From assembly GCA_020724525.1 (NCBI GenBank), contig DYGU01000003.1, positions 38,105-102,104 on the forward strand: a DNA stretch of 64,000 nucleotides. Reading direction: 5' to 3'. Below the pieces are notes generated by a model. It saw nothing but the letters and a program-made list of their open reading frames with translations. It ran no database searches and was not told the origin of the DNA. Below, piece after piece: positions 39,080 through 63,097 of this stretch; within the stretch, counting starts at the first letter, position 1; every line of letters starts with the position of its first letter. This DNA comes from Dehalococcoides mccartyi (GTDB taxonomy: Bacteria > Chloroflexota > Dehalococcoidia > GIF9 > DYGU01). The position numbers and the translations under genes are program-made.

Positions 39080-40042
39080 TTAGACCCGTCGCCGCAGTAT
39101 CAGAGCCAGGGCACCAAAGTAGCGGCAAAGATTAAGGAAGGCTATACCAATAATGAGAGCCGAACTTGGCCCTGGAACAACAGTTTTGGCAACTCCGACC
39201 ACGGTGAAATAACCCTCTCGCCCATCAACAACCACATGATAAGTGCCAGGCTGAGTCTTGTAGACCGTGAAAGTCACCTGGATGGTGATGCGAGCGGCTA
39301 CTGTTAGGCTCTGAGTTTGCTCCACAACCCCGTTTATAGTTAAGGTAAGGTTGATAGCTCCAGGCATCCCACCAGCATTGGTCACATTGACTGAGACTAC
39401 TACCGGCTGATTGGGCTGGACTTGAGTTGCCGAAAGACCAAAATCACTTATAAACACGGCTGCCGGAGTTAGTGGTAGGCGGGGGACTGGAGGTGGTGGC
39501 GGTGGAGGTGGTGGAGGCGGTGGAGGTGGTGGAGGCGGTAGTAGAACAGCCGGTCCACCCTGGTCATCAATCACCCCATTAGCCACGCCATCATCGTCCC
39601 CGATGCCGCCATCAGTCAGGGTTAAAGTCAAAATATTATCGCCATCATTGCTGCCTAAAAATGGGGTCATATTAATCCAGCCTTCGGGGACATGATATTT
39701 CCAGTATTCAGTGCCTACTGGAAGAGGCGATGAGAAGGTAATGGTTACAACGACGGTTGCACCTAGAGTGATATTGGTGATGTTAAACGAGAAAAATCCA
39801 TGAGGGAAAATAACTCCTGTTGGTTTACCCTCTGTGGGCAGTGCCCCTTCAGCTATCGCAAACAGGTTGGTAATATTGCCCAGATTAGATGAAAAAGAAG
39901 TCACTCCAGTGCCAGTAGCCATGCCTGTCGCTTGAGTTGCCCCCGGGACAAAATTGACGGTAGTACTTACTTTGTATTGCGCCTCAGGGACGCCCGGACC
40001 ATGTGGTGCCGAGGCTGTTACTGTGGCTGTTTCCACAGTCAT
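39080..40042 (-). CDS. C-terminal fragment of large surface protein (Pro18 linker, C-terminal TM anchor); separated from its N-terminal part by a frameshift
   Basis: The frame is open upstream to 40276 and encodes an Ig-like Thr-rich segment (...ISAVPTSIAIGGAATSTITADLTRNSAGEVTGPPYIPDGTQIIFTTDKGSIGNTTVTK...) contiguous with the 40192..42249 ORF in another frame. Contains PPPPPPPPPPPPPPPPPPVP encoded by a (GGN)n tract at 39481..39540. C-terminal hydrophobic anchor plus RRRV. Confidence 0.6.
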   Translation of the reverse strand: MTVETATVTASAPHGPGVPEAQYKVSTTVNFVPGATQATGMATGTGVTSFSSNLGNITNLFAIAEGALPTEGKPTGVIFPHGFFSFNITNITLGATVVVTITFSSPLPVGTEYWKYHVPEGWINMTPFLGSNDGDNILTLTLTDGGIGDDDGVANGVIDDQGGPAVLLPPPPPPPPPPPPPPPPPVPRLPLTPAAVFISDFGLSATQVQPNQPVVVSVNVTNAGGMPGAINLTLTINGVVEQTQSLTVAARITIQVTFTVYKTQPGTYHVVVDGREGYFTVVGVAKTVVPGPSSALIIGIAFLNLCRYFGALALILRRRV

Positions 40043-40191
40043 AGATGAGGTCAGGGTAGCTGTCGCCTTGCCATTAGTGGTTGTTTTGGTTACTGTGGTA
40101 TTACCAATAGAACCCTTGTCCGTGGTAAAGATAATTTGTGTGCCATCGGGGATGTAAGGCGGACCGGTGACCTCTCCTGCCGAGTTCCTGG

Positions 40192-42249
40192 TCAGGTCAG
40201 CAGTGATGGTAGAAGTGGCTGCCCCACCAATGGCAATGCTGGTTGGAACGGCGCTGATGTTAAGGACAAGCCATGGTCATAGTCAACATAATCCGAGACC
40301 TTATCACCACTGCCGGGGCTGGTTCTCGGTCCATCATTAGCCCCCCACCAGTTGTTGGTGGCATTGACTTTAAGCTTACTTTCGTTTAAAACACCGTAGT
40401 TTGAATTACCCACGATGATATTACCGGGACTGATGATGACCCGGTAATCTTCCGCCATACCGTAGATGTATATGCCGTCCGCGAGATTCCCGGAGATGGC
40501 GTTACTGACAATGACTACTTCGCCATACTTATCCACGTCATAGATGCATATGCCGCAGAGAGCATTGCCCGGGTATTGCAACCCCTTACCTATGATGTTA
40601 TCACTGATAGTGAGCAACGCTTGCTCTACGCTAAAACTGAATATCCCATGACCAAAGTTGCCGCAGATAAAGTTAGTAGTAATTTCAACATTGCTACCAC
40701 CCACAACCCAGTTCAAGTATATGCCGTGAGCTTCCTCGGGACCATTAGTGGCGATTTTATTCTTAGAGATAATGACGCTGCTATCTTCCGAAACATCGTG
40801 CTCGAAGAATATGCCGCTATATGTGTTCTCGGAGATGGTGTTGCCGCTGATGCTGGCACTGCTCTTATATACATAAGCGATGTATAGCCCATAACCAAAG
40901 TTTTTGCTGATCAAGTTGTTGTTCACGATGTAAGTAGCACTATCTGAGATTCCCTCGTGGTATATGCCGCCATAATACCAAATACTGCCGTTGTTCGTAA
41001 TTTCGTTAGCGCTAATGGTGATGCTGCTCCCATATGCAAGTGAGCGGAGGCGTATGCCAGCAGAAGGGTTTCCGGAGATTTTATTTTGGTCGATGGTAAC
41101 ATTGGTGCCAAACAGCCAAAACTGAGTTTGGTGTATCCCGTAAAGGGAATTGTTGCTGATGGTGTTGCCCTGGATGAGGACAATGGGACCGAAGTACCAC
41201 TGGGGAATTTCCTCGTCTTCCCAGAAATAGTCACCATACACACCGAAGGACCCCAATCTTATGCCATCATAATAAGGCTTTTCCGAACCATTTCCGGAGA
41301 TGTCATTGCCCCGGATGGTGAGCTTGCTGGCAAAATCCATATGAAGGATATTTATCCCGCTATAGCCGTTGAATTCTATAGTGTTCTCATCAATAATAAT
41401 TTTGCTCTTACCATATTGCTGAAAGTAACTGTAGTAGGTATCCGGGTCTTCCACGGGGTCAAAGCCGACGGAGCCAATGAATATCCCTTCATAGCTGTTA
41501 TTGGAGATGCCATTTTTCTTTATGGTCACAGTGCTGCCATAGTCCACATAGTCAATAGTTACCCCTGGACGATTGTTATCCTTAACAACATTACCCTTAA
41601 TGGTAAGCCTGCTGCCCCAGTATACCTCTTCAACGTATATCCCCTCACTGCCGTGTCCGGAGATAGTGTTAGCCTCAGCCTGATTAGCACCACCAATGGT
41701 AACCATGCTCCTGTAATGCAGCTTGTTAGTGTAGATGCCGTAGTGCGCGTTGTCATCAATAACATTGCCCCAGATTGTAACTGTGCTTTTCCCATTCACC
41801 ACCTCGAGTTTTATCCCGTACTCGTTTCCATGGATGATATTTTGGCTAATGGTAAGTTTACTTTTATTGATTATCTGGGCATATATCCCGGCCTCGCCGC
41901 CAGTGACGGTAAACCCTTGAAAGACGACCATCTCAGCGTCAAGTATGATGGTAACTACATGGTTCGCGACGGCCAAGGCGTCAATGATAGTCACCTCAGC
42001 ATTAACACTGGACTTCAGGGTTAGAGACTTATCAATTGTTATATTCTCTTCATATACTCCCGGCGCCACAAGGATGGTGTCCTTGGCGTTGGCAGCATTA
42101 ATGGCTGCCTGAATGGTAGCGTAAGGCTTCCCTGGTCCAACCTCAAGGAACGCTGCCGCCACCGGGCTTGCCGGAACTATGGCTACTCCGAGCGCTAAAA
42201 CCAGCGCCGTAATCACCAGTAGCAAAACAATTTTGTTCCCTTTAGCCAT
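40192..42249 (-). CDS. N-terminal part of secreted right-handed parallel beta-helix repeat protein (signal peptide plus PbH1 repeats)
   Basis: Signal peptide MAKGNKIVLLLVITALVLALGVAIVPASPVAAA. More than 15 PbH1-like repeats (NxIxxNxxxGIxxxxS...). 685 aa, terminating 60 nt after the frameshift point. Confidence 0.7.
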   Translation of the reverse strand: MAKGNKIVLLLVITALVLALGVAIVPASPVAAAFLEVGPGKPYATIQAAINAANAKDTILVAPGVYEENITIDKSLTLKSSVNAEVTIIDALAVANHVVTIILDAEMVVFQGFTVTGGEAGIYAQIINKSKLTISQNIIHGNEYGIKLEVVNGKSTVTIWGNVIDDNAHYGIYTNKLHYRSMVTIGGANQAEANTISGHGSEGIYVEEVYWGSRLTIKGNVVKDNNRPGVTIDYVDYGSTVTIKKNGISNNSYEGIFIGSVGFDPVEDPDTYYSYFQQYGKSKIIIDENTIEFNGYSGINILHMDFASKLTIRGNDISGNGSEKPYYDGIRLGSFGVYGDYFWEDEEIPQWYFGPIVLIQGNTISNNSLYGIHQTQFWLFGTNVTIDQNKISGNPSAGIRLRSLAYGSSITISANEITNNGSIWYYGGIYHEGISDSATYIVNNNLISKNFGYGLYIAYVYKSSASISGNTISENTYSGIFFEHDVSEDSSVIISKNKIATNGPEEAHGIYLNWVVGGSNVEITTNFICGNFGHGIFSFSVEQALLTISDNIIGKGLQYPGNALCGICIYDVDKYGEVVIVSNAISGNLADGIYIYGMAEDYRVIISPGNIIVGNSNYGVLNESKLKVNATNNWWGANDGPRTSPGSGDKVSDYVDYDHGLSLTSAPFQPALPLVGQPLLPSLLT

Positions 42250-42413
42250 TTTTAAGCCTCTTTTACAGTCAGCATCTCTTTACCGGTGCCAATATTAAGA
42301 GCTGAACATAGGTATTGTCAATAGGTCGGTTTAAAACCCCTGCCTTGACGGTCCCAGTTTAGTTGTCTAAACTTGAAGTAGCAGATTAAAAAGGGGTATA
42401 GGGGTTGATAGAG

Positions 42414-42608
42414 ATGAGTTTCTGGGAACTATTGGCCTTGGCCGGGACTATGGCAACCATCTTTGGTATATTTACTACAATTTATGCCGTAATAAATGGC
42501 AGAAGTACCAGGAAGATACTCAGTAGAATAGAGCAGGGACAGACCGAAGCCAGAAGAGAAATGGCTGAGGCTATAAAGTTCCTTGGACAGCTAATTAAAG
42601 CCCCATGA
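42414..42608 (+). CDS. hypothetical small membrane protein
   Basis: 64 aa from ATG 42414 with one TM helix (LLALAGTMATIFGIFTTIYAVI) and an amphipathic tail. Weak support. Confidence 0.3.
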   Translation: MSFWELLALAGTMATIFGIFTTIYAVINGRSTRKILSRIEQGQTEARREMAEAIKFLGQLIKAP

Positions 42609-42649
42609 AAAATTTGCTTCGCTATTATCACCCCACCAAATCTTCGATT

Positions 42650-42730
42650 TGGTGGGGAACCCCGGGACCCCGCTTGAAGTGAAAGTAAATTCGGGATCCT
42701 CTGAAAAACTTTGTTTTCAGGGGTAATTAA
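42650..42730 (+). repeat. intergenic repeat element, divergent copy C
   Basis: AAATTCGGGATCCTCTGAAAAAC-TTT-GTTTTCAGGGGTAATTAATT shares the 3' hairpin module and AAATTCGGG lead-in with copies A and B. Stem differences are compensatory. Confidence 0.45.
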
Positions 42731-42821
42731 TTGACTCTGAATCGGAAAAGACAAGGCAGGTGCTTAAAGCCCAGCCCTGATTAGTATTTTTAGTTTACTA
42801 CCTGAGCCAACCTTGATGAAA

Positions 42822-44009
42822 TCACCCCGGATTAATACCAAAAATAGCCACACAACTTACCTGAGGATGACCACCAAGGGTATGTGCTAAACCCACCTCA
42901 GCCCTCTTTAATTGACGGGCTGGTAGTTCAGCTTTCCCTTGAAGTTGTTTATAAACTTCGTAGGTCATCCTCAGTCCACTGGCGCCTATCGGGTGCCCAA
43001 AAGCCTTTAGTCCCCCATCACTATTAACAGGCAAATCCCCCTCCAAAGCAAAGTTTCCAGCTTCGACATCTTCCTTAGCCCTCCCCTTCGGGCTGAAACC
43101 AAAATCTTCATATATTATGAGTTCAGTAATAGTAAAGCAATCATGGACTTCGGCTAAGTCTAATTGCTCCCGCGGCTTAGTTATCCCAGCTTGCTGATAG
43201 GCTTGTCGGCTGGCAATTCGGTTTACTTCAAAGCCAGTCCAGTCAAAATTAGGTTCAAAATGAGGCATCATCGGGTTCTGGGATAACCCTATTCCTTTTA
43301 TATAAATAGGGTTGTCTTTAAATTTTTTAGCTATATCACCTCTAACCAGGATTGCCGCTGCCGCCCCATCGCTGTTACCACAACAATCAAACAGCCCCAA
43401 GGGCCAGGCAATAATAGGAGCATTTAATACTTGCTCCAAGGTCACCTCTCTCCGCAAATGAGCCTTAGGATCCAGGCTCCCATTACGATGGTTTTTAACG
43501 GCAATCTTAGCCAGAACTCTTTTACCTTCGTTAGGACTTAGTCCATAGGTATAAAAATACCTGGTAGCAATTAAAGCAAAAGAGCCAGGAGCAGTACGCC
43601 GCATCTCTAAAACTGGGTGCATCCCCCTACCAACACCGAGTCCCGGAAAACCCGTGTCCTTCAGTTTTTCAAAACCTAAGGCTAATACTATGTCATACAT
43701 ACCACTGGCAATACCAAAGGTCGCGTTTCTCAGGGCTTCATGTCCGGTAGTACAATAATTTTCTACCCGCGTCACTGGAATCCGGGGCAGCTTTAAAGGT
43801 TCCGCTAAACACAAACCACCCATACCCACCCAGTGAGCACTTACTGTCCCCACCCAAGCGGCCTGAATATCCTTAGGCTCTATACCAGCATCAGTATAAG
43901 CTTCATAGGCTGCCTCTATTATCATATCCCCAGAATCCTGCTCCCAGTTCTCCCCAAACTTAGTGCAACCCATACCAATAATAGCTACCTTGTCCTTAAT
44001 ACTTTCCAT
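42822..44009 (-). CDS. thiolase-like protein (acetyl-CoA C-acyltransferase family, archaeal-type)
   Basis: MESIKDKVAIIGMGCTKFGE... with catalytic-Cys context (LFDCCGNSDGAAA) and GHPIGASG near the C-terminus. 395 aa. Confidence 0.85.
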   Translation of the reverse strand: MESIKDKVAIIGMGCTKFGENWEQDSGDMIIEAAYEAYTDAGIEPKDIQAAWVGTVSAHWVGMGGLCLAEPLKLPRIPVTRVENYCTTGHEALRNATFGIASGMYDIVLALGFEKLKDTGFPGLGVGRGMHPVLEMRRTAPGSFALIATRYFYTYGLSPNEGKRVLAKIAVKNHRNGSLDPKAHLRREVTLEQVLNAPIIAWPLGLFDCCGNSDGAAAAILVRGDIAKKFKDNPIYIKGIGLSQNPMMPHFEPNFDWTGFEVNRIASRQAYQQAGITKPREQLDLAEVHDCFTITELIIYEDFGFSPKGRAKEDVEAGNFALEGDLPVNSDGGLKAFGHPIGASGLRMTYEVYKQLQGKAELPARQLKRAEVGLAHTLGGHPQVSCVAIFGINPG

Positions 44010-44012
44010 AAC

Positions 44013-45449
44013 TCACCCTTCTCTTACCGGTCGGCATTTCCAAAAATAATTGTGGAAGCCACCGAACTGATGAAATTTGCGTAATACCATCTCCACAGGC
44101 ATGTCCACCTTGACCTCTTCAGCCTCACAGTCCGTCATCAGACAATAGATTCTGGCTCCTCCCTCAGATTCAACCACCGTCTGCACTACTGGTGGCTGGG
44201 GTGTACCCGCCAAGTAGTCCAAGGAGAAAGTGAAGACCTTTCCTCTTTTATCGGTAAGTCTTACCTCTTCATATTCATCTTTAGACTGGCAACCGTAGCA
44301 AACCCGCTGTATAGGAAAGGTGACTAAGCCGCACCGTTTGCATTTACTGCCATGACCCGCCAAGACCCAGTTCCGTGTCCGCCACACTACCGTCGCTGAA
44401 GGAAAAAGACGGACAAATTCTTCCGACTGGGCCACCAGTTGCCGGAAAAGTAAATACTTCTCATAAGCAGGCAAGGCTCTTTTTGTTGTTAGATATCCTT
44501 CTATATCCCGACGACTCTTAACCCCTTCAATTTCTTGGGTCGCTTGCAAAAGGAAAGCATCACTGCCATCACCGTAACTGGCTAAAAGAATCTTATCACC
44601 AAGTTTGGCTTCACTTAAAGCAGAAGCTAACATAAGTAAAGGATGAGCCACCCCCGTGTTGCCCACACTATCCAGCAGCGAATCTTGCAGCTGAGAATCG
44701 GAAAGTCCCAAGTCCCGTGCCAGCTCCCGATGGCTTCTGCCCTCAGGGGCATAAAATACAGCCTTCGTCAGGTCACCAGTAGCTAAGTTATTTTCTTTCA
44801 TAACCTTCAATATAGCCTCTTTCATATTCCTGGCATAACCATAGCTCAGCACCCAACGGTCTTCCCAGGAACGGACAAAGGTATCTGTGTCCAGCCTCCA
44901 GACATCAATTATATCGTCAGTAGAAGATACCATCTTCTCTACGTTAGCGACAGTTTGAGAATTCCCAATAAGGATAGCCGCTGCCCCATCACCAAAAGCC
45001 TGCTCTTGTACTGACTGAGGGTAGCCAAGACGACAATCAGCAGCTACCACCAAAATATTCCGGGCTGACCCGTTACTGACTGTGTCCAGAGCTAATCTCA
45101 GAGCATTGGTACCACTCCGCAAGGAATTGGCAAAGTCAATAGTAATAATATCCCGACGCAAATCCACGGCTGCCGCCACTATACTGGCACACTGCTTCTC
45201 TTTATAAGGGGAAGTTGTGGAGACGAAAAATAAGCCGTCAACTTCGTCTCGGTTAATCCCACCAAGGCAGTTAATAGCTGCTTGTACTGCCATAGTTATG
45301 CTGTCTTCATCGTGATTAGCTACACTTCTTTCACCTCCCATAGACCGTCCACCCCAAGCCTTGGCTATCAAATCCCGGCTCAACCGATAATAGGGCACAT
45401 AAACACCAAAAGAAACAATACCTGCTTTCAAGCTTCTCCTTTCTATCAA
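44013..45449 (-). CDS. HMG-CoA-synthase-like protein fused to C-terminal Zn-ribbon/OB-fold (DUF35) domain
   Basis: N-terminal GIVSFGVYVPYYRL (HMGCS/KAS-III-like) and C-terminal CKRCGLVTFPIQRVCYGCQS zinc ribbon plus OB fold. 3-nt gap to the thiolase gene. Confidence 0.75.
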   Translation of the reverse strand: MIERRSLKAGIVSFGVYVPYYRLSRDLIAKAWGGRSMGGERSVANHDEDSITMAVQAAINCLGGINRDEVDGLFFVSTTSPYKEKQCASIVAAAVDLRRDIITIDFANSLRSGTNALRLALDTVSNGSARNILVVAADCRLGYPQSVQEQAFGDGAAAILIGNSQTVANVEKMVSSTDDIIDVWRLDTDTFVRSWEDRWVLSYGYARNMKEAILKVMKENNLATGDLTKAVFYAPEGRSHRELARDLGLSDSQLQDSLLDSVGNTGVAHPLLMLASALSEAKLGDKILLASYGDGSDAFLLQATQEIEGVKSRRDIEGYLTTKRALPAYEKYLLFRQLVAQSEEFVRLFPSATVVWRTRNWVLAGHGSKCKRCGLVTFPIQRVCYGCQSKDEYEEVRLTDKRGKVFTFSLDYLAGTPQPPVVQTVVESEGGARIYCLMTDCEAEEVKVDMPVEMVLRKFHQFGGFHNYFWKCRPVREG

Positions 45450-46337: not shown

Positions 46338-46368
46338 AAGCGGCTGAAATTAAAAGGAGGTGAGAAAA

Positions 46369-46566: not shown

Positions 46567-47818
46567 TTATAGCCTGACCCAACCCTGCCGGAGCAGGTTA
46601 TAAAGCCCGACTCCTACAACGAAGGCAGCCAGCATATTCCACATGGCTAATCCCGCTGTAACTATCATTACATAGAGGTCCTTCTTCTCAGGACTAATAT
46701 CCCAGGCTGTGACTGCCAGCTCCGCCCCAGCAAAGAACAGGATCACTCCCAGGATCGCCGCTGGGAACATCCCAAAAAATACATTTACTGAGTCGCTAAA
46801 AAAGATAGCCAGCACGAGGATGAGAGAGCCGAGAATCACCAATGCCCCGCCATACCTCCGGCCCCATGGCACAACGGGACACCACCAACCAGAGGTGATA
46901 AAAGGTTCATAAGTCCCGTAGTGATGGAGAGCTTACGTTCCGAGACTCTGCGATGAGGAAAAAGTTCATTATTTTCAGCAGCGGTAGCAATGATAGCATT
47001 CCCCAGGGTGAGCAGCACCTGGGGAAGTGCCAAGAACAAAGCTCCCATAGCCATATCCTGCCAGGTGAGGTTACCCAAAGCAAACCTCGGAAGGTGGAAA
47101 CGGAGACTCACTTGTGAAAGCTCTTTGACTAAACCGGTGTCCTACCACAAGGCTACCACTCCCCCTAATACTAATAACACAAACATAGCTGGTATCCTGG
47201 GGCTGGACAGAAGGAAAAGGGTGAGAACCATAGCCATACCAGCTAACCACGGGGTAGGTAACATCATCTTCACCCCCTCAGCTATGAAAAGAAACCCAAA
47301 ACCAAGCATTATACTCCACACCACAGGTTTAGCTGCCAGCTTTGCCACTACTCCTATCAGATTAGTCACTCCAAGCACTAGCCAGACTAAACCAGTAACT
47401 ATACCAGCCCCATAGAGCATCCCAGGCGTTATAGCGCCCGCCTGGACAATGGCACTGGCGCCAATAGCTTTCATGGGTTGGACAGGCACAGGCGTCTTGT
47501 AAAAAAGTCCACAGCAATCTTGGCAACCCCAAAGGGCAGGAGCACTCCAAGGGGATCCAGCTTCATTACCGAAATATAAGCCACTACAAAAGGAATGAGA
47601 GTGCCGAGGTCGCCAAAAGCCCTCGCTCATTCTGTAAGAGAGTAAACATTGCCAGGCTTGACTTCCCCGATGGCAGACGGACGTTGCTCCAAGGGTATCA
47701 TAGACCTCAGACGGCGACGCCAGGCAGAAAATCGTTGGCTTCCCCAGCCCATGCTTTCCCCCAGGCAACCATTATAAGGCAATGTCAACGATTGAGCCAA
47801 AACTACGTGTTGCGTCAA
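46567..47818 (-). pseudogene. MOT1/SulP-related putative molybdate/sulfate transporter, disrupted (in-frame TGA plus at least 3 frameshifts)
   Basis: Family motifs are spread over three reading frames: AFGDLGTLIPFVVAYISVMKL (preceded directly by in-frame TGA), ...PMKAIGASAIVQAG..., ...GGVPLCHGAGGMAGHW then RRYGGALVILGSLILVL... Four overlapping partial ORFs (46567..46872, 46836..47111, 47142..47768, 47627..47818). Confidence 0.5.
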
Positions 47819-48080
47819 AATAAACTGTTACCCCATACCTCAACACATTCCGTCCAACCACTGGCTACATCCACTGAGGTGCACTCTGCTTTCATGTTAC
47901 ATGTTACCTTTTTACTGGGAGTGTACCACTTGAGTTCACTTTTCAGCTTTTAACAGTCCACTTTTGAATTTTATTTAACAATTTCAATTCCGACTATTGA
48001 TAGAACGGAATCCATTTATTAGACTTATTAGACACTGCGGTTGACAACTTGTAATTCATTAGGCGAAAGGAGGGAGTGTT

Positions 48081-49448
48081 ATGGTTGATAACTCTTTGTC
48101 GCCACACGGAGGCAAATTGGTGGAGAGAGTTATGGAGCCAGAGAAGGCGCGGGAGGGAAGCCTTGCCGAGCCTTATTTGCTTGAGGAGACAAGCATGACT
48201 ATCCTGGTAATTGGCGGTGGTATTACAGGTATGACCGCTGCTCTTGGGGCAGCTGATGCTGGTTATAATGTTGTGCTTATTGAGAAAAATGCTGAGCTTG
48301 GCGGCTGGGCTAAAAAACTACACAAACAGTTACCACAAAGCTATCCTTTTGAAACCCTTGAGGAGGTAAATGTTAAATCCATTATTGAAAAGGTCAAAAC
48401 CCACCCCAATATTGAGGTTTTGACTTCCTTTGAAATAGAGGAAATGGAAGAGATAGCCTCAAAAGGTAAGATTACTCGACCTTCAGATGGCAAAATAGCA
48501 AAAAGGGTGGCTTTTATCCAATATGCCGGCTCACGTGAGCCAAACCACTTACCTTATTGTTCATCATTTTGCTGTCTTACATCATTAAAGCAGGCTCTTT
48601 ATGTAAGAGAAAAGAACCCTCATTCAATGGCATATATTCTCTATAAAGATATGAGGACACCAGCTCAATACGAACTTTCTATAAGAAAATACAGGCTGAC
48701 CCGGGTATTATGCTCACCAAAGGTGAAGTAACTGGAGTCAGTGAGGTAACTAATGGTAATCTGTTTGTTGATGCTAAAGACTGTACACCCAAGGGCATGG
48801 GACCAGACTTGTCCAGAAGTTTTCCTCCAGAGGTGTACTGCTTGTAAGAGGTGTACTGAAGAATGTCCCTTTGGCGCAGTAGATGAAGATGAAAAGGCTA
48901 TTCCTTACCATAAGATTACTCGCTGCCGTAGATGCGGTACTTGTCTCGGCTCCTGTTCTGAAAGGATTATATCATTTAAAGATTTCCACATTGATATGAT
49001 AAGTTCAATGTTCAGATCAGTAGATTTACCAGAAGAGGAGTTGACACTTATAGGGCTTGTGTGTGAAAACGATGCTTATCCCGCCCTGGATACAACAGCA
49101 ATAAAGCGGCAAAAGCTTCATCCGGCAATAAGGTTTGTCCCAGTTAGATGTCTTGGCACATTGAATTTAGTCTGAATTTCTGATGCCCTAGCCAGAGGCA
49201 TTGATGGTATGATATTACCTGGCTGTAAGTTCGGAGAAAACTACCAGTGTCATTTTATTAAAGGAAGTGAACTTGCTGATTATAGACTTGGAAAACTTCA
49301 TGAGACACTGGACAGGCTTAAGCTTGAATCCGAAAGGGTCCAGTTAGTGCAGCTTTCAATAACAGAATATGATAAGTTGCCACAGATATTGAATGAGTTT
49401 GTCCAAAGGCTTGAGGAGATAGGTCTAAATCCGTTTAAGGGATTGTAA
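48081..49448 (+). pseudogene. HdrA-like FAD/FeS oxidoreductase fused to MvhD-like domain, disrupted (2 frameshifts plus in-frame TGA)
   Basis: ILVIGGGITGMTAALGAADAGYNVVLIEKNAELGGW and RVAFIQYAGSREPNHLPYCSSFCC (HdrA). After the frameshift, FYKKIQADPGIMLTKGEVTGVSEV. Then the ferredoxin insert CTACKRCTEECPFGAV...CRRCGTCLGSCS. Then the MvhD-like VRCLGTLNLV-TGA-ISDALARGIDGMILPGCKFGENYQCHF. Confidence 0.55.
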
Positions 49449-49465
49449 ATGTAGGAGTTTTTAAA

Positions 49466-50725
49466 ATGAATATTCTGAGAGGAGTTTTTGAATTTCTTAA
49501 GATGGGATCAGTTGCCCAGGCGAAGTGGGAGTATGAGGTTTCGACGAACATCATAAGGAATCGAAAGAAACTCCTGATCCTTATGATTTTGCTCCTGCCA
49601 ATACTATTCACGGTGGTTGCCGAAGCAGCCGACATACTTGGAGGCAAGGCTGCTTATGCCCCTCTCTCCTATTCAACGACTGTTTTTCTCGTTTCAATGG
49701 CCATAGGTCTGATAGCAGGACTTATTACAGGATGTATCGGGGCTGGTGGAGGCTTTATTATAATCCCCGCCCTGATGGCTGCCGGTGTCAGAGGTATTAT
49801 GGCAGTTGGGACAGATGTTTTCCATATATTTGCCAAAGCAATAATGGGCACTACTGTCCACAGGAAATTGGGAAATGTCTGTGTAACTTTAGCTATGGCA
49901 TTTGTCATAGGTTCTGTCGGAGGTGCCACTTTAGGTGGCTATATAAACAGGACAGTCTATGACATTGACCCAGTTCTGAGTGATGCCTTTATCAGCTTAG
50001 TCTATGCGGCAATACTCCTTTTTCTGGGCTCCTATGCCTTTTATGACTTCATTAAATTAAGAAAGGTAAGTAAGTCTGTAAGTGCCCATGATGGGGGTGA
50101 ACCTGTTCAACCGCTTACAACCACAGCCCTGGCATTAAAATTACAGGCTTTAAAGCTTTCCCCCAGAATTAAGTTTGATGAAGATTTCGTGCCTGGAGGC
50201 AGAAGACTACCCGCCCTTGTTGTAGTCATTGGTGGCTTTTTTGTCGGAGTTATTGCAGCAATAATGGGGGTCGGTGGTGGGTTTATAACCTTTCCCATGT
50301 TCGTCTATCTCTTCGGCATATCCACAATGACGACTGTAGGGACGGATATCCTCCAGATAATCTTTACTGCCGGTTATGCCTCCATATCGCAATATGCAAT
50401 CTACGGCTATGTTTTCTATACTCTGGCTATGGGATTGCTTTTAGGTTCGCTTATCGGTGTCCAAGTAGGAGCACTGACAACAGAGGTGATAAGGGGGATA
50501 GATATTAGAGGATTTTATGCTTGTTGTATCCTTGCCGGGTTTATAAACAGGGCGAGTGTGCTTCCTAAACAGTTCACAGAACTCGGCTATATAGAACTAT
50601 CAAAACCCGTGGCATCAGGTATAGAGGCTTTTGGATTCTTTGCTTTCTGGATAATACTTGCCATTTTTTGTATCTGGGTTCTCAGCAAGTTTTTTGGAAA
50701 CATTAAGGCACTAAGGGAAGAATAG
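49466..50725 (+). CDS. TSUP family (TauE/SafE-like) membrane transporter
   Basis: Two 4-TM repeats each with GAGGGFIIIP / GVGGGFITFPM motifs. 419 aa. AT-rich. Confidence 0.8.
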   Translation: MNILRGVFEFLKMGSVAQAKWEYEVSTNIIRNRKKLLILMILLLPILFTVVAEAADILGGKAAYAPLSYSTTVFLVSMAIGLIAGLITGCIGAGGGFIIIPALMAAGVRGIMAVGTDVFHIFAKAIMGTTVHRKLGNVCVTLAMAFVIGSVGGATLGGYINRTVYDIDPVLSDAFISLVYAAILLFLGSYAFYDFIKLRKVSKSVSAHDGGEPVQPLTTTALALKLQALKLSPRIKFDEDFVPGGRRLPALVVVIGGFFVGVIAAIMGVGGGFITFPMFVYLFGISTMTTVGTDILQIIFTAGYASISQYAIYGYVFYTLAMGLLLGSLIGVQVGALTTEVIRGIDIRGFYACCILAGFINRASVLPKQFTELGYIELSKPVASGIEAFGFFAFWIILAIFCIWVLSKFFGNIKALREE

Positions 50726-50727
50726 GT

Positions 50728-51441
50728 ATGATAATAAGACATAAAAAATCCTTTGTTCTAGGGATTATCCTCACCTTTTCATTCTTTATACTGTTATTTC
50801 TCATATTTTTACCTATATTTGGCGAGGGTAAAAATGGTCTCGAGTTTGCTGATGAAATGTTTAACAAACTGGCTAAAGGCTCATCCTATTTTATCCCTGA
50901 GGTTATAAAAAGTAACGAGAAGTTTATCGGTAAAACGTTTACTACCAGTATAAGGCTTGACACGCCTGAGGATGCTGAAAAAACAGCAAAATTATTTACT
51001 ATTGCTGGGGCAATGGTAGAAGTTAAGGGAGCCGAATTAAAGATAGCGGGGGACTTGGGTAAGACCCTTAATGGAGCTCTACAAGATGCCGATGTCATGT
51101 ACCATAATAAAGGGGCTGAGATTTCAGGTTTATACGGATATGATGAGAAGGCTGTAATGAAAAACTGGTGGCAAGCACTAAGCCAGATGGAAAAAACATT
51201 TGAGAAGGAAAAGATGATTGCCGAGGCTAAGATTGTATCCGATGTAAAAAAGAAGGCTATTGAGACAGCCTATAACTACTATAACATTGATGCCGTAAAG
51301 ATTAAAGATAAAATTGGTCTTACGACATTTATGCTAACATTCTATGTAGGCTATACAATTTGGTGGGGATTTGCTGTGCTTTATCTGCTGGATGGGCTGG
51401 GGCTTAGCGCGAAGAAGGCAAAGGTAAGGAAAGAGGTCTAA
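50728..51441 (+). CDS. hypothetical membrane protein (N- and C-terminal TM helices)
   Basis: 237 aa, 3 nt after the TSUP gene. No recognisable family. Confidence 0.45.
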   Translation: MIIRHKKSFVLGIILTFSFFILLFLIFLPIFGEGKNGLEFADEMFNKLAKGSSYFIPEVIKSNEKFIGKTFTTSIRLDTPEDAEKTAKLFTIAGAMVEVKGAELKIAGDLGKTLNGALQDADVMYHNKGAEISGLYGYDEKAVMKNWWQALSQMEKTFEKEKMIAEAKIVSDVKKKAIETAYNYYNIDAVKIKDKIGLTTFMLTFYVGYTIWWGFAVLYLLDGLGLSAKKAKVRKEV

Positions 51442-51892
51442 GCTTACGAGTGATTTCACTGGTTCTGTCTAAAAATGGTAGTTAAGGCTGAAGATAAAGT
51501 TGAATATATTGTGCCCGATTACGATTTCATCAAAAGATAATCCAGTCGGGGGGAGAATCCTTAAAGAAGTGCTTCCAGTATGGTAATTGCTCAGTGATTT
51601 GCTCCTTATCTCCTCAAAAAAGCCCTTCCCGAGGAAAGAAATGATATGGGCTTAGTGGGGATTGAAGGACAGGCTCTTCGAAGACCCTGATGTCTGGGTA
51701 TGCCACAATTGCTAAGAAATTATGGCATTGTATATTTTGCTCTTCCAAGCTTTTTGGCAAAATCCTTCTCCAGGTTCACATATCTGCTTTTTGCTTTAGT
51801 TACCCCCCATTTTCCTGCCTTTTTTACCAATCACTTATACTCAAGCCCAGATTGTCTTTTTTATAGTCACTGGTTTAGTATCTGTCATTGTT

Positions 51893-52408
51893 ATGACTTC
51901 ACTCCTAAGATTTTGGAAAAATATCAGCCAATTCGAGAGTAAGTCAGCTTCAACACAGATGTATTCTGGAGGTAGTGCTGAGCTTGTAACTCAGAAAGAT
52001 TTCTTAACGAGCTTTGTTTCGTCTTTGGTTGAAATATTATTACATAGCAATTTCAAAAAGTGTGGAATAAATAAAGGCAATTATTTACCGCATTTTCTCA
52101 TATTCTACGGATTTGTCGCCCTATTCGTTACCTGTTTTGGTGCTCCAATTTATTCACTAACCGGGGCAGGGTTACCGCTTCCTCTGACTAACCCACTTAA
52201 AATTCTTGGAATTATGGGGGATTTAACACTTTTCGTTGACTTGACTCTTGTTATCTACAGCCGGCTATTTAGAAAAGGTGAGACGGCTAAAGCAACTTAT
52301 TATGACTGGTTCTTTATAGCGTTGCTTTACCGAATCTTAGCCATGACCTATGTCAAGCAAATAGGAAGAGAGATAGCAACTGGAGTCTCTGTAGGAAAGG
52401 GGATATAA
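51893..52408 (+). CDS. hypothetical polytopic membrane protein, possibly a gene fragment
   Basis: 171-aa ORF with 3-4 TM helices preceded by about 450 nt of broken short ORFs. Low-confidence coding call. Confidence 0.3.
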   Translation: MTSLLRFWKNISQFESKSASTQMYSGGSAELVTQKDFLTSFVSSLVEILLHSNFKKCGINKGNYLPHFLIFYGFVALFVTCFGAPIYSLTGAGLPLPLTNPLKILGIMGDLTLFVDLTLVIYSRLFRKGETAKATYYDWFFIALLYRILAMTYVKQIGREIATGVSVGKGI

Positions 52409-52451: not shown

Positions 52452-52883
52452 CTAAGTAGATACCTCTTCCTTAACTGAAACAGCTATTTTATACAAGATG
52501 GTGAGTATAAGTAACCCCAGCGCCCAGACACCAAGTGTGATCAATACCTCAGGCGCTGTTGGCACATATTCCAATATTTCACCTATAGGTGAAGGAATAA
52601 ACCCCGGCACAATCAGACCGAGCCCCTTATCTATCCATATAGAAACAAAGACTGCGGCGTAGGCTGTGGCTTCTTCTTTTATCTCAAAGCCCAGTTTTTC
52701 AATTATTCTAAAAAGCCTCTTTTCAGAAACCTCACTATTATCAAATTCTATCCAAGCTTCACCGTTTCGTTCATCAATATTACTGTCGACTACCCCCTCC
52801 AAGACATCGACTTCGGTTTCAATCAAAGCTTTATCATTTTGAGAGCAGATGCCCTCTATTTGAAATTTAATTTCTGTCAACAT
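52452..52883 (-). CDS. degenerate HMA-like domain plus 2 TM helices, possible truncated remnant of a P1B-type ATPase N-terminus
   Basis: KFQIEGICSQNDKALIETEVDVLEGVVDSNIDERNGEAWIEFDNSEVSEKRLFRIIEKLGFEI follows the HMA fold pattern but lacks the CxxC metal site (ICSQND). Two TM helices follow. 143 aa. Confidence 0.35.
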   Translation of the reverse strand: MLTEIKFQIEGICSQNDKALIETEVDVLEGVVDSNIDERNGEAWIEFDNSEVSEKRLFRIIEKLGFEIKEEATAYAAVFVSIWIDKGLGLIVPGFIPSPIGEILEYVPTAPEVLITLGVWALGLLILTILYKIAVSVKEEVST

Positions 52884-53359
52884 ACTTTTCCCTGCTTATA
52901 GTAATTACTTATGAAAAAGTTTGGTGACCTTTAAAATTTCTTCTATCATTTACTGTTTTCTTTTCTCATTCTTTGTTCCCATTGCTTTCTTAAAGCAAGG
53001 GTTAAGATGATTTTCCATTAGCATTTGATGGGCGGATTTTAAAAGTCCAATAATTGCTAAATTTTGCTGCCTGATATCAAAGCAGCATTGGTTGTCTTGG
53101 ACATTTGGATAATTTTAGCAATTAGGCTTTGGGCTTGTTAAAATTGATACGGTTTTTTCTTTTTGGGTAGACATACTTTTAAAAAATGTAGCATGTCGAA
53201 GAGCTAACATTTCCCCTAGGGATTACCCATAAAAAGAACTATCTTGTCTCTGAAAGTCCGTCAATACGGTCAGTGCCCATAGCAACTGTGGTAGGGACAC
53301 CTGTAAGATAAATCATGGCGGCACTTCTCCTGGCAGTGGTGACCTTTCTCCAAATCCAT

Positions 53360-53386
53360 TGACTTGCTTAAATAATGTTTATAATA
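53360..53386 (+). promoter_or_regulatory. candidate sigma70 promoter for pdxST (TTGACT-N15-TATAAT)
   Basis: TTGACT at 53360..53365 and TATAAT at 53381..53386 (the spacer is 15 to 17 nt depending on register), about 65 nt upstream of the pdxS ATG within a 567-nt AT-rich noncoding stretch. Confidence 0.35.
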
Positions 53387-53450
53387 GTAAAATATAAACA
53401 AAAGGGCGCGGTAGGCGCTCAATTTTAATCACGAATACTAAAGGGCACTA

Positions 53451-56430: not shown

Positions 56431-56440
56431 AGAATCGCCC

Positions 56441-58193: not shown

Positions 58194-58197
58194 GCCC

Positions 58198-58839: not shown

Positions 58840-59040
58840 CAATTAAAATCGACTTACTATGCGAGTGTTTTTTGTTATTGCGAGGAGCGTTAGCAACGAA
58901 GCAATTCCGATGTAAGTGTGACATTGGTTCTCCCTCACTTCGCTCGGGTCGCAATGACAGGCGAGAGTTACCAAACGCTTTGTTGAACTATTGTGCTTAT
59001 CCCCCTGACAGTTTATAATTGCCTCTGGAGATAGTCTCTA

Positions 59041-60459
59041 ATGAGAAAGAGCCAGAAAGGGAAAAGGGCTGGAGCCGGAAATATTACGGTACCTCAGGAA
59101 GCCGAAAGTCAAAGGGAGGCTATAAATAGCCTCCTCAGCCTTTTTGCTACTAAGTCATCCCGAAAGGAATATCTGGAGGCGGTGGTGGAGAGAATTGGTC
59201 TCTGGAGCGGTTGCCGCTGTGTTGGTATCCGGGTACTTGACGAGTCTGGGAATATTCCTTATGACTCCTATGTGGGCTTCAGTCAGGAGTTCTGGGAGGA
59301 AGAGAATTTCCTTACTATTACGAAGGACAAGTGCATTTGTACCCGAATAATTAGCGGGCTACCAGAACCAGAAGATGCCCCTTACCTGACCCCGGTGGGC
59401 TCTTTCCGTTGTGATAATACGAAAGAGTTCATAAGCGGGATTTCAGAAGAGGGAAGAGCTAAATATAGAGGCACTTGTCTCCGGGTGGGCTTCATCTCGC
59501 TGGCAGTCATACCCATCCGCTATCGTGAGCAGATAATTGGCTTAATACATCTGGCTGACGAAAGAGAAGGTACTGTGCCGCTGACTGTGGTGGAATTCAT
59601 CGAGTCTATGTCACCCCTTATTGGCGAAGCAATGAACCGGTTTAACTTAGAGGAAGAACTCCAGCGAGACTACCAGATTCAAACCGTCATCAGCAAATTG
59701 GTAACCATTTCCCTGGAGAAGATTCCGCTGGAGGAAATACTGGAGCGCGCCATTGACATTGTCTTTTCTGTAGAGTGGATTGCCTTTCAGGGGAAAGGGG
59801 GTATTTCACTGGTAGAAGCTGAGCCGGAGGTGCTGGTGTTAAAAGTCCAGCGAGGGCTTGCCCCACAAATACAGGAGGTGTGCGCCCGGGTTCCTTTTGG
59901 CAGATGCCTTTGTGGTCGAGCAGCGTTGAAAAGGGAAATAGAGTTCGCTGACCATGTTGGTGAACTCTATGAAACTCGATATGAAGGTATCATACCTCAC
60001 GGTCATTACTGCGTTCCTATCCTGTCAACAGGCAAGGTACTGGGGGTGCTTAACCTATACCTTAAAGAAGGGCACCGCCGCTATGAAAGAGAGGAAGCAT
60101 TTCTACAGGTGGTAGCCAACACCCTGGCGGGAGTTATTGAGCGAAAGCTGGCAGAGAAAGAACTTGAGAAGACCCTTAATAAGTTGCAAAGAGCTGTGAA
60201 GGGGAGCATTCAGACTGCAGCATCTATGGTAGAAGTAAGAGACCCGTACACAGCCGGGCATCAGCGGCGGGTAACCAGCCTGGCTTGTGCTATGGCTCGG
60301 GAGATGGGGCTTCCCAAAGAGCGAATTGAAGCCCTTCGGATGGCGGGGGCTATTCATGATATCGGTAAAATATACATACCAGCCGAAATTCTGAGTAAGC
60401 CCGGCAGGATAACGGAAATTGAGTTCAGTGTCATCAAAACTCATCCCCAGGTTACTTAA
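59041..60459 (+). CDS. GAF-GAF-HD-GYP phosphodiesterase, upstream portion (frameshift splits the HD-GYP domain)
   Basis: Two GAF domains then HD start HQRRVTSLACAMAREMGL...GAIHDIGKIYIP...IKTHPQVT-stop. Confidence 0.7.
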   Translation: MRKSQKGKRAGAGNITVPQEAESQREAINSLLSLFATKSSRKEYLEAVVERIGLWSGCRCVGIRVLDESGNIPYDSYVGFSQEFWEEENFLTITKDKCICTRIISGLPEPEDAPYLTPVGSFRCDNTKEFISGISEEGRAKYRGTCLRVGFISLAVIPIRYREQIIGLIHLADEREGTVPLTVVEFIESMSPLIGEAMNRFNLEEELQRDYQIQTVISKLVTISLEKIPLEEILERAIDIVFSVEWIAFQGKGGISLVEAEPEVLVLKVQRGLAPQIQEVCARVPFGRCLCGRAALKREIEFADHVGELYETRYEGIIPHGHYCVPILSTGKVLGVLNLYLKEGHRRYEREEAFLQVVANTLAGVIERKLAEKELEKTLNKLQRAVKGSIQTAASMVEVRDPYTAGHQRRVTSLACAMAREMGLPKERIEALRMAGAIHDIGKIYIPAEILSKPGRITEIEFSVIKTHPQVT

Positions 60460-60760
60460 TCTAATAAAAAACGTAGAGTTGCCGTACCCGGTTGCCGAAA
60501 TAGCTTACCAGCATCATGAACGGATGGACGGCTCCGGATATCCGCAAGGTCTTTCTGGAGAAAACATTCTCCTAGAGGCGAGGATTTTACCCGTAGCTGA
60601 TGTTATAGAAGCCATGGCTTCTTACCGCCCCTACCGACCGGCTCTGGGTATAGACAGGGCACTGGTGGAAATAATGCAGAAAAAGGGTATCCTTTATGAC
60701 CCGGATGTGGTAGATACATGCCTCCGGCTCTTTACCGAAAAAGGATTTAAGCTGGAATAG
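60419..60760 (+). CDS. HD-GYP domain C-terminal portion (continuation of 59041..60459 in +1 frame)
   Basis: ...LIKNVELPYPVAEIAYQHHERMDGSGYPQGLSGENILLEARILPVADVIEAM carries the HHExxDGxGYP signature. Joining needs removal of one T near 60451..60457. Confidence 0.7.
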   Translation: MSSVSSKLIPRLLNLIKNVELPYPVAEIAYQHHERMDGSGYPQGLSGENILLEARILPVADVIEAMASYRPYRPALGIDRALVEIMQKKGILYDPDVVDTCLRLFTEKGFKLE

Positions 60761-60925
60761 CCTCACCCCCTTTCCGTCCTTGCGAGCCCCGAGAGGAAAC
60801 GAGGGTCGGAGCAATCTCAATAGACAAAAGACATTGCTTGAGATTGCCACGCCTCCGGCTCGCAATGATAAGAGGGTGACTGGTAATGACACAAAAATTT
60901 AGCTGGCATTGACGAGAGAAGGCTA

Positions 60926-61285
60926 ATGAAACGAAAAGAACTGGGTGTCTTAGGCGAAAAATTAGCCAGAGCTTTCCTCAAAAAGAAAGGCTACCGCATC
61001 CGGGAGACAAACTTCCACTGCCATGAGGGTGAGATTGACATTATTGCCCAAAAAGATGACTATTTGGTCTTTGTGGAAGTCCGCACCAAAAGCAGTAGCG
61101 ATTTCGGCATACCTGAAGAATCAGTAACTCACACCAAAAAAGAAAGGCTCATCACTACGGCACTAACTTACTTGAAGAGCCACCAGGACTTGCCGCCTTC
61201 ATGGCGCATAGACATTGTGGCTATAGAACTGGACGAAAAGAATAAAGCCAAACGAATTGAACTTATTGAAAATGCTATTAATTAA
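60926..61285 (+). CDS. yraN: YraN family endonuclease (UPF0102)
   Basis: LGEKLARAFLKKKGYRIRETNFHCHEGEIDIIAQKDDYLVFVEVRTK. 119 aa. Confidence 0.85.
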   Translation: MKRKELGVLGEKLARAFLKKKGYRIRETNFHCHEGEIDIIAQKDDYLVFVEVRTKSSSDFGIPEESVTHTKKERLITTALTYLKSHQDLPPSWRIDIVAIELDEKNKAKRIELIENAIN

Positions 61286-61287
61286 AA

Positions 61288-62027
61288 ATGGAAAGGTTTG
61301 AAGGACAAGTAATAGCCTATCTCGTCTTCGCCATACCTGCCCTCCTATTGGCAGCCCTGTTCTACTCTTTTGCTCGGACTGATATCCGCTATGTTCCTCA
61401 GCCTGACGTTCCCGCAGCCACTAACGGAGCCCCCATGACCTCAGTGGTTTTATCCTTGGCACTCATCTTTACCATAGCTATACTGAATGGTTTTATTTAC
61501 CGGGGTATAGTTACCTTCCTACCCCTATATCTCGGTGAACGAGTCTCAGGGGCTTTTAAAATTCAGATAGCCAGTTATTAGCCGGTTCGTTCACCACCAT
61601 AGCCCTTGCCTTCGGAATTGGTGGTCAGTTTATCGGGGGCTACCTCTCAGACCGAAAGCGCCGGGAAGTCCTCGCCGTTACCGTAACTGCCACAACAAGC
61701 CCTCTCCTTGTGGCAGTAGCCGGTAGCCAGGGGCTCATATTGATGATGGCTGCCATCATTTTTGCCTTCTTCCATTTTATGGGGCAACCAATTTATAACA
61801 GCCTTGTTGCTGACTACAGCCCAACTGCTTGGCGAGGGCGCAGTTTTGGAATCTACTTTTTCTTTACCTTTGGTCTTGGCTCTTTCTCGGCAAGTATACT
61901 GGGCTACGCTGCTGACAAATGGGGCATCAATTGGAGTTTTGTCGTCGCTGCTGGGTTTGCTCTTATCGCTTTAGTCTGTGCTACCCTCGTTTCAGAGAGA
62001 CTGGTGACAGTGCCTGGAAAGAAGTAG
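61288..62027 (+). pseudogene. MFS transporter C-terminal half (6 TM), frameshifted. N-terminal half absent
   Basis: Two ORFs (61288..61581, 61710..62027) are joined by a 1-nt shift at 61576..61581 (SY-stop vs SYLAGSFTTIALAFGIGGQFIGGYLSDRKRRE...). Starts right after yraN with the mid-loop of an MFS. No first six TMs anywhere upstream. Confidence 0.5.
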
Positions 62028-63097
62028 AAGAGGCAATGCTGGCTAAGGCGCATCAGGGTGGTTTTCGCATTATTGGTCCTAACTGCCTTGGTGTCTATTC
62101 TCCAGAAAGTAGACTCCCCCTCTTTGAGGGTGTGATGGGGAATCCGGGCACAGTTGGCTTCGTTTCCCAAAGTGGCAGCTTATCAGCCGAGTTAATCAAC
62201 CTTGGTATAGCCTGTGGCATAAATTATAGCAAAGGCATCAGCTTTAGAAATGGTATTGACCTTGATGTTATTGATTCTCTGGGATACCTAACCGCTGACC
62301 CTAAGACCAAAGTCATCGGTGTTTATATTGAAGGGATAAAAGACGGACGTTACTTTTCCAATAGGGTAAAAAAGGCAGCTAAAGCTAAACCTTTGATTAT
62401 ATGGAAATGGGGAAGGACACAGGCTGGCGCTACTGCCGCTGCCTCTCACACCGGCTCTTTGACCAGTTCCATTACCGCCTGGTCAATAGCTATAAAACAA
62501 GCTGGTGCTATTTAAGTTTACAGCCTGGAGGAGCTGGCTGACACTTTACTCTTATTCCAGCAGCTCAACCGGTGGCAAGGCAACAATGTGGCTATTATTA
62601 CTAGGCTTTATGGTGCTGGCGGGGGCGCCTCTGTCTCTGCTGCCGATACCTGTGCCCGGTTCGGGCTTAATGTTGCGCCCCTTTCTCCCCAGATAAGAGA
62701 TAGTTTAATGAAGTTATTAGGTCCTGTAGTTAGTATCTTATGTAATCTTCTGGACATAACCCCAATTCTCGGCTCCCCTTCCCTTTTAGAAAGAGTCATG
62801 GAATTAGTAATCTCCAAGCCGGCTATTGAACTCATACTGATCCAGGAAGATGTGGACATAATTTTAGCCTATGCTCCTATGGAACAACTTCAGCAATTAA
62901 ACAATGTTTTCCTCAACTTCGCCGATCGGCAAAACAAGTCTGTAATAGTTGTTCTACCGCCGGGGAATGCTGAGGTAGAACGCTTGAAATTAGCCCAAAT
63001 GCTAAATCAAGGTGGGATAGCTGTCTTCCCATCTATGGAGCGCGCCGCTAAGGCTATTGTAAATATGCGACGATACTTCCGTTTCCGTAGTTCCTGA
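61985..63097 (+). pseudogene. acyl-CoA synthetase (NDP-forming) alpha-like gene, N-terminally truncated and with in-frame TAA
   Basis: RETGDSAWKEVEEAMLAKAHQGGFRIIGPNCLGV...GFVSQSGSL...QAGAI-TAA-VYSLEELADTL...IITR...ADTCARFGLNVAPL. ORFs 61919..62515 and 62588..63097 are in the same frame, separated only by TAA 62513..62515. The CoA-binding N-domain is missing. Homology starts where the MFS remnant ends. Confidence 0.5.

Follow-up and report, generated by a model that had tools for sequence, protein, structure and literature searches.

What does it mean when a whole run of neighbouring genes in a bacterial chromosome is broken while the genes among them are sound? This question is raised by positions 39,080-63,097 (~24 kb; hereafter the region) of a 64,000-nucleotide stretch, the window, of contig DYGU01000003.1 (assembly GCA_020724525.1), which belongs to the metagenome-assembled genome (MAG) of an uncultured member of the Dehalococcoidia. 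The first-pass annotation of this DNA had reported seven disrupted loci in 25 kb; we found the disruption where it had been placed, but the count is eight. We consider it most probable (roughly 0.85) that, in an uncultured Dehalococcoidia from deep fracture fluid, these loci form a run of real pseudogenes in an accessory part of the chromosome, produced by ordinary local decay.

The damage is concentrated in the region. Eight of its 20 loci are disrupted, as against none of 34 in window positions 1-39,000 (Fisher exact p = 1.2e-4), and intact genes account for only 46% of the sequence between 39 and 63.1 kb compared to 88% between 1 and 39 kb, so that the clustering of disrupted loci exceeds chance. 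All 34 protein genes in the first 39 kb, including pyr/car, moeA/mobAB, the gene for aldehyde:ferredoxin oxidoreductase, hom, a thrC-type PALP gene, greA, speB, speD, cinA and thiC, have full-length domain coverage and tight spacing. We inspected a stretch of ~75 kb, which includes 5 kb upstream of the window (L091), and in these 5 kb rpoB is intact and is followed by the start of rpoC, which leaves the retrieved stretch. Within the region itself, the ORF (open reading frame) lists and Pfam scans revealed adjacent fragments of one family in neighbouring ORFs, namely MFS_MOT1, FAD/Fer4/FlpD, HD_5, MFS_1, and Succ_CoA_lig with Ligase_CoA_2. Twelve genes amid the pseudogenes (thiolase, HMG-CoA synthase, rsmG, tauE, orf237, pdxS, pdxT, an R3H ATPase, tmk, mnmA, rnhB and yraN) either match their orthologs in the closest relative in length or have full Pfam coverage, and because these interleaved genes are intact, the damage is selective for dispensable genes. 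No transposase or integrase domains or insertion sequence (IS) elements were detected among the called genes of the inspected stretch, and scans with Rfam and for tRNAs gave no RNA gene in the region's gaps.

To map the lesions, each locus was compared with intact forms. The closest syntenic relative, JBHOQK010000011.1 (L004), has ~78% amino acid identity to the window (72-95% in shared genes) and a conserved gene order, and served as the reference for the MOT1, MFS and ADP-forming acyl-CoA synthetase (ACD) genes; contig L083 and protein P0001 were used for QmoB and QmoC, P0365 for the surface protein, and P0124 and others for the HD-GYP gene. NrfD homologs were found as well, and disabling lesions could be mapped to the base at all eight loci. 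These lesions comprise stop codons in place of conserved Trp, Lys, Glu or Gln residues, frameshifts of 1-2 nucleotides (nt), deletions of 31-413 bp and lost domains.

The same DNA has been assembled repeatedly. Contig Ga0246235_100075 (106,668 bp), from a Joint Genome Institute (JGI) metagenome, includes the window, with 100% identity over the retrieved positions 39,466-64,000, and Logan contigs assembled from runs SRR13164376, SRR5011273, SRR28264341, SRR28264343, SRR1587769 and SRR7867194 are 100% identical to parts of the window, the SRR28264343 contig over positions 49195-50830 and others as listed in Table 1. The QZGF assembly (SRR7867194) represents the BE326 BH2 fracture-fluid metagenome, sampled 1.34 km down in the Beatrix gold mine, sequenced on the Illumina HiSeq 2000 and assembled with SPAdes (PMC6256629). 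Every lesion lies within at least one base-identical contig of another assembly. Because the same lesions recur in contigs from other runs and assemblers, and because substitutions and deletions of 31-413 bp are beyond homopolymer noise, sequencing noise is excluded and the breaks are genuine mutations. The first-pass annotation had likewise argued that the in-frame stops and missing domains could not be indel noise, a view borne out by the stops at conserved residues, the deletions of up to 413 bp and the agreement between the assemblies of several runs. Its further claim, that in-frame TGA and TAA codons stand at conserved positions, holds for the MOT1 and ACD genes and for the TGA at 49173 of the gene it had called MvhD-like, but not for the TAA triplets at 48729 and 48747 of that gene, which are merely out of frame rather than nonsense substitutions.

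Table 1. Disrupted loci of the region, the intact genes lying within the qmo block, and matching contigs from other assemblies (window coordinates).
Feature	Position	Strand	Description
Cell-surface protein	42249->39080	-	1-nt deletion at 40275-40276, leaving ORFs of 685 aa and 320 aa
MOT1-like (MFS_MOT1/SulP-related) anion transporter pseudogene	47770->46567	-	Four lesions; intact ortholog in L004
qmoB relic (earlier labelled HdrA/MvhD-like)	48081-49448	+	455 codons, against 746 aa when intact
TauE/SafE-family permease (419 aa) and 237-aa membrane protein	49466-51441	+	Intact; between the qmoB and qmoC relics
qmoC relic	51498-52408	+	From tblastn and DNA alignment to L083 QmoC
Chimeric 143-aa ORF	52455-52883	-	Residues 1-72, orphan HMA-like stub (weak match); residues 73-143, NrfD family
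GAF/HD-GYP signalling phosphodiesterase	59041-60760	+	472-aa and 113-aa ORFs; frameshift at ~60449-60452
MFS transporter relic	61288-62027	+	Intact 392-aa ortholog in L004 (14185-15363)
ADP-forming acyl-CoA synthetase alpha-type (ACD-like) relic	61991-63097	+	Intact 475-aa ortholog in L004 (15433-16860)
Contig L089	39021-42657		SRR13164376 (5 samples); 100% identical
Contig L090 (NCBI QZGF01001094.1)	39801-42351		Illumina; 2 single-nucleotide polymorphisms (SNPs), 0 gaps (99.92%)
Contig L085	45516-52493		SRR13164376 (4 samples); 100% identical
Contig L086	48703-51927		SRR5011273; 100% identical
Contig L002	52466-64000		SRR13164376 (2 samples); 100% identical

The three loci with orthologs in L004 allowed decay to be followed base by base. 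The intact MOT1 gene of L004 (411 aa; L004 positions 6260-7495) matches the window in three different frames. Two of the lesions are stop codons, TGA at 47627-47629 instead of a Trp codon of the ortholog and TAG at 47142-47144 instead of Lys; the other two are deletions, of 1 nt at 47510 and of 31 nt at 46851. Contig L085 is identical across this gene in four samples. Elsewhere in the window, the molybdenum/tungsten (Mo/W) cofactor genes moeA, mobB and a mobA-like gene, together with that for aldehyde:ferredoxin oxidoreductase, are intact at 4098-11655. With these genes intact and the MOT1-type putative molybdate/anion transporter dead, the organism must import Mo/W by another route.

The MFS and ACD relics adjoin one another. 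The MFS gene has retained its start codon directly after yraN, as in L004, but has lost ~453 bp (residues ~10-160) at 61321-61360; at 61548-61557 the frame shifts by a net -1, and the 3' end of the gene has been cut by a 409-bp deletion. This last deletion, at 61984, joins the end of the MFS gene to codon 107 of the ACD gene, having removed the 3' end of the former, the spacer and the first 106 codons of the latter. The CoA-binding domain is consequently gone from the ACD relic (in L004, Pfam places CoA_binding_2 at residues 16-142), which also carries a TAA at 62513-62515 in place of Glu.

At two loci, a single lesion was found. In the surface-protein gene, the sequence GAC CCA TGG has become GACCATGG, which translates as 'D H G' in the frame upstream and as 'P W' in the one downstream; the alternative frame beyond the break runs on as 'PWLVLNISAVPTSIAIGG', and an intact homolog of 965 aa (P0365) spans the junction in one frame as 'VVYEPWLKLNISAFPTSIAVGG'. 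The domain order across both pieces is signal/transmembrane (TM) segment, right-handed beta-helix, Big-like, choice-of-anchor U, poly-Pro linker, CARDB and TM anchor, and the modules of the downstream piece, from Big-like to TM anchor, are in homologs almost always the C-terminal part of longer proteins. The frameshift is also present in the Logan SRR13164376 contig (five samples) and in QZGF01001094.1, with its two SNPs and no gaps. The poly-Pro linker between choice-of-anchor U and CARDB, in the 320-aa ORF, is encoded by 21 proline codons in a row at 39500-39570 (minus strand).

In the GAF/HD-GYP gene, the HD motif lies in the first ORF and HHERMDGSGYP in the second, with Pfam HD_5 positions 4-84 and 85-170 in different frames, whereas homologs carry THPQVGYDILK...HHERMDGSGYP in a single frame. 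A 2-nt deletion fits the length of the segment best, and the sequence is identical in contig L002. No intact close ortholog of this gene was found among 5.8 billion proteins, the next best match being 56% identical.

The most heavily decayed loci surround the TauE/SafE-family permease and 237-aa membrane-protein genes. The first of them, initially described as HdrA/MvhD-like, is on homology a relic of qmoB: all of its top 120 homologs are 741-751 aa long, apart from one partial sequence of 674 aa, many are annotated as QmoB, and the best is 89% identical in a C-terminal block. Compared to L083, ~78 N-terminal residues are gone, together with small 5' deletions, and deletions have removed 168 bp in frame at 48444, a single bp at 48677 and 413 bp at 48780, for a total loss of ~40% of the length (~290 residues). 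The 1-bp deletion shifts the frame and the 413-bp deletion restores it, which accounts for the two out-of-frame TAA triplets mentioned above. In contrast, the TGA at 49173-49175 corresponds to Trp656 of P0001, in the FlpD/MvhD-like domain and within the 89%-identical block. Contigs L085 and L086, the latter from SRR5011273, are identical over the relic. We also considered whether the segment 'PHGGKLVERV' at its N-terminus derived from ATP sulfurylase (sat), implying a fusion deletion across sat-apr-qmo, and rejected this candidate, as the segment is QmoB's own 'PGNLVERV'.

Downstream, the qmoC relic lacks one nucleotide at 51623 and has TAG in place of Gln at 51653. At 51707-51713 it has lost 58 bp and with them a CxxC cluster motif, there are additional 1-nt insertions and stop codons, and 144 bp are missing in frame at 52325. 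Fe-S motifs and helices are among the parts lost. The L083 QmoC used as the reference scores above the NCBIfam qmoC equivalog cutoff (342.7 > 300 bits). On the opposite strand, the chimeric ORF contains the final 71 aa (52458-52670) of a quinone-interacting membrane subunit of the NrfD family (PF03916), with 83% tblastn identity over these 71 aa. All homologs of the chimeric ORF are NrfD/HybB-like and cover only ~50% of it, and all those retrieved are contig-end fragments; by tblastn, the rest of the subunit has no match upstream of the remnant. An intact NrfD-type subunit is presumably ~400 aa long, in which case ~330 residues are gone.

In every intact cluster that we examined (L083, L096 and L098-L100), qmoB directly adjoins qmoC. 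L098 and L099 encode a complete aprB-aprA-qmoA-qmoB-qmoC cluster followed by an H+-PPase gene; L100 is the same from aprA on, its contig end being too near for aprB; L083 reads aprA-(CxxCxxCC)-qmoA-qmoB-qmoC; and in L096 only qmoA-qmoB and the beginning of the following gene are present. Searches of the window with tblastn returned no match to qmoA or aprBA beyond paralogous similarity, and no further NrfD, AprA or QmoA remnants in the gaps at 47770-48080 and 52884-53450. No meaningful direct or inverted repeats or marks of mobile elements were found around the tauE-orf237 insert and the qmo block. A functional QmoABC complex is encoded by complete qmoA, qmoB and qmoC genes, usually beside aprBA; with qmoB and qmoC fragmentary, such a complex, judged from its remaining genes, cannot be functional here. 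We infer that the relics are leftovers of an aprBA-qmoABC-type cluster, the whole of which would once have been present. In the two gaps that flank the decayed block (311 bp and 567 bp, respectively), no ORF, RNA family or remnant of a protein could be detected; both gaps may be what is left of fully eroded genes.

Taken together, these lesions are consistent with a simple course of events. The affected genes, which encode two transporters, a c-di-GMP-type signalling protein, a surface protein, an acyl-CoA synthetase subunit and the APS-reductase-associated QmoABC/NrfD-type leftovers, would have become dispensable; spontaneous mutation would have inactivated them by single-base nonsense changes, indels of 1-2 nt and deletions of 31-413 bp; and the remnants would then have been shrinking under the deletional bias typical of bacteria, while purifying selection would have held the interleaved essential genes intact. 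In this scheme, relaxed selection would be the cause of the decay. Both Trp-to-stop changes must be TGG to TGA, a single substitution leads from CAG, AAG and GAA to the remaining nonsense codons, and all large events are losses in the window copy. By lesion count, the loci would form an age series, from the surface-protein and HD-GYP genes (one lesion) through ACD and MFS (two) and MOT1 (four) to qmoB, qmoC and nrfD (at least five, with 15-80% of the length lost). The ratio of differences from intact orthologs at codon positions 1 and 2 (averaged) to those at position 3 is 0.31-0.40 for MOT1, ACD and qmoB, 0.52 for MFS and 0.66 for qmoC. Since the differences in the first three are still mainly at third codon positions, most of their divergence probably accrued under selection and their inactivation would be recent, while MFS and qmoC look more relaxed.

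Several points weigh against this reading. In intact neighbours, the codon-position ratio is 0.09-0.33 (0.25-0.33 in the less conserved or accessory-type ones), and because the ratios of the remnants overlap this range, relaxed selection is not directly demonstrated. Loss of function is judged by the lesions, that is, from sequence, and the split products of the two single-lesion loci could be partly functional. The ~75-kb stretch is the sole part of the genome that was inspected. Finally, SRR13164376 is possibly the same library or read set as that behind the JGI contig; as it may underlie the JGI assembly, independence is weakest for 52.5-64 kb (HD-GYP, MFS and ACD), where it rests on the different assembler and the record of two samples with this contig.

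Among the other explanations, the one that fares best concerns the qmo block, and it refines ordinary local decay without contradicting it. The block qmoB-tauE-orf237-qmoC-nrfD (48-53 kb) could be a failed horizontal transfer, foreign DNA that was incomplete or never useful and has decayed, with the other pseudogenes as native losses. Such an acquisition is plausible because the named top QmoB matches are all from Nitrospirota/Thermodesulfovibrionia and none is from Chloroflexota; because L004, with a single unrelated TauE-family gene at this place, lacks the block, as do 79 other relatives; because its GC content is 41%, compared to 45% in the window; and because its nucleotide identity to L083 (82%) exceeds that between housekeeping genes of the window and L004 (70-82%; 76% for the R3H-domain gene). 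The relatives are those of the R3H-domain protein of the window, at 80 loci nearly all labelled as Dehalococcoidia, Dehalococcoidales or Chloroflexota MAGs, which marks the organism as an uncultured member of the Dehalococcoidia. However, there are no mobile-element signatures beside the block. Dissimilatory sulfur genes occur in some Dehalococcoidia (PMC4959651, PMC10591310). Given this evidence, we hold a foreign origin of the block as a tentative possibility.

A broader explanation is that the whole genome is eroding by drift in a tiny, isolated or host-restricted population, with the region as a sample. The high local density of broken loci fits this, as do the isolated fracture fluid at 1.34 km depth and the HD-GYP gene for which the protein search returned no close intact ortholog. 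The population, moreover, looks remarkably clonal across sampling campaigns: DNA that is 100% identical to the window comes from at least six Sequence Read Archive (SRA) runs, and the BE326 assembly differs by only 2 SNPs in 2.5 kb (loci L002, L085-L087, L089-L090 and L092-L095). Identical DNA across runs from an aquifer that is isolated makes it plausible that the population is clonal and has passed through a bottleneck. In contrast, none of the 34 genes in the adjacent 39 kb is broken, rpoBC upstream are intact, accessory functions alone are affected, and neither IS elements nor a drift to low GC (the value being 45%) nor any host association was seen. Genome-wide erosion is thus unlikely in our view; the ~75 kb that we read did not have a high pseudogene density throughout, and the same DNA occurs in a fracture-fluid metagenome rather than in a host-associated habitat with IS expansion. 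The more specific proposal of an early, drift-driven, genome-wide reduction in an isolated deep aquifer, in which a sulfur respiration module linked to APS reductase and Qmo was recently abandoned, is less likely still. In the first-pass annotation, the region had been ascribed to ongoing genome erosion as in host-restricted or bottlenecked lineages; what stands of this is real gene decay, with intact orthologs in a relative and a deletional bias, while genome-wide erosion and host restriction are not supported by the intact adjacent 39 kb, the fracture-fluid habitat and the restriction of damage to accessory genes.

Errors of sequencing or assembly, that is, homopolymer indels and false SNPs that mimic disruption, are very improbable: some of the 1-nt indels do lie beside short homopolymers (of T at 48677, A at 51623 and C at 40275), but the sequence is identical in independent assemblies and runs, Illumina HiSeq included, many lesions are substitutions or large deletions, and single loci hold up to four or more independent lesions. 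Three forms of recoding were considered. Selenocysteine was rejected, as the TGAs align with Trp and not with Cys or selenocysteine, and the gene with TGA at Trp656 also lacks ~290 residues. Stop-codon reassignment (codes 4 and 25) was rejected, as all three stops terminate intact genes (TAA 21, TGA 16 and TAG 9 among 46 intact window genes). Programmed frameshifting was rejected, as homologs of the HD-GYP and surface proteins are single-frame and there is no slippery heptamer at either site. Although two in-frame stops are TGA codons that replace Trp and the HdrA/MvhD-family proteins include selenoproteins, a reading in which TGA encodes selenocysteine, or Trp or Gly under an alternative code, and the frameshifts are programmed can be dismissed, given that TAG and TAA also occur as in-frame stops, that the same genes have large deletions and that the tRNA scan found neither tRNA-Sec nor a suppressor tRNA in the window.

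The window has other features apart from the pseudogenes. An HMG-CoA synthase gene fused to a DUF35/ChsH2-type zinc-ribbon and OB domain adjoins the thiolase gene at 42822-45449 (minus strand), an arrangement kept in L004; the thiolase/HMG-CoA synthase/DUF35 set is archaeal in type, found here in a bacterium with two of the three parts fused. In the pyrimidine operon, genes for a DNA methyltransferase (N6_N4_Mtase) and an EcoRII-C-like endonuclease (16774-19012), apparently a restriction-modification pair, lie between carA (15677-16777) and carB (19336-22635). A PyrR-binding leader at 12646-12776 (plus strand), upstream of the pyr operon, and a TPP riboswitch at 38791-38907 (minus strand), upstream of thiC, both score above the Rfam gathering threshold.

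On the preferred reading of local decay, the region offers a new instance of a well-known phenomenon. In bacterial pseudogene loss under deletional bias, nonsense mutations and small indels are followed by larger deletions, accessory genes are affected and loci range from those with a single lesion to those almost erased (PMC2817411, PMC2916853, PMC6054270), all of which applies here. Those cases come from enteric pathogens and insect symbionts, whereas the present one comes from an uncultured deep-subsurface Dehalococcoidia, in which 40% of loci are affected but only within 24 kb. Free-living bacteria usually average ~1-5% pseudogenes, and the local 40% is far above this. As in Sodalis glossinidius (PMC7067036, PMC3091646), recognisable gene remnants with multiple lesions stand beside intact essential genes; in Sodalis-type genomes, however, decay is genome-wide and IS elements have proliferated, while the present organism lives in fracture water instead of a host, the 39 kb next to its pseudogenes are undamaged and IS elements were not seen. 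The qmo relics resemble the aprBA-qmoABC cluster of sulfate reducers (PMC3333476), being homologous to QmoB (up to 89% amino acid identity, in the C-terminal block) and QmoC, but differ from it in that the window lacks qmoA and aprBA, qmoB and qmoC survive as fragments, and these are separated by two unrelated intact genes. Among recently host-restricted organisms, Mycobacterium leprae has another pseudogene-rich genome.

For annotation, the eight loci should be labelled as pseudogenes, and the MAG should be credited with no Qmo-linked sulfate respiration, MOT1-type anion uptake or this ACD. The results also show that, given a close relative, the decay of genes in a MAG can be followed at single-base resolution. 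They document that an uncultured Dehalococcoidia lineage once had part of an aprBA-qmoABC-type module, whether inherited or imported, and has since lost it. If the pattern were genome-wide, it would bear on the balance of drift and selection in energy-starved deep-subsurface genomes, and if early genome-wide reduction were indeed under way, the graded pseudogenes, unchanged over several sequencing campaigns, would constitute a rare record of how fast genes decay among the slow growers of the deep biosphere.

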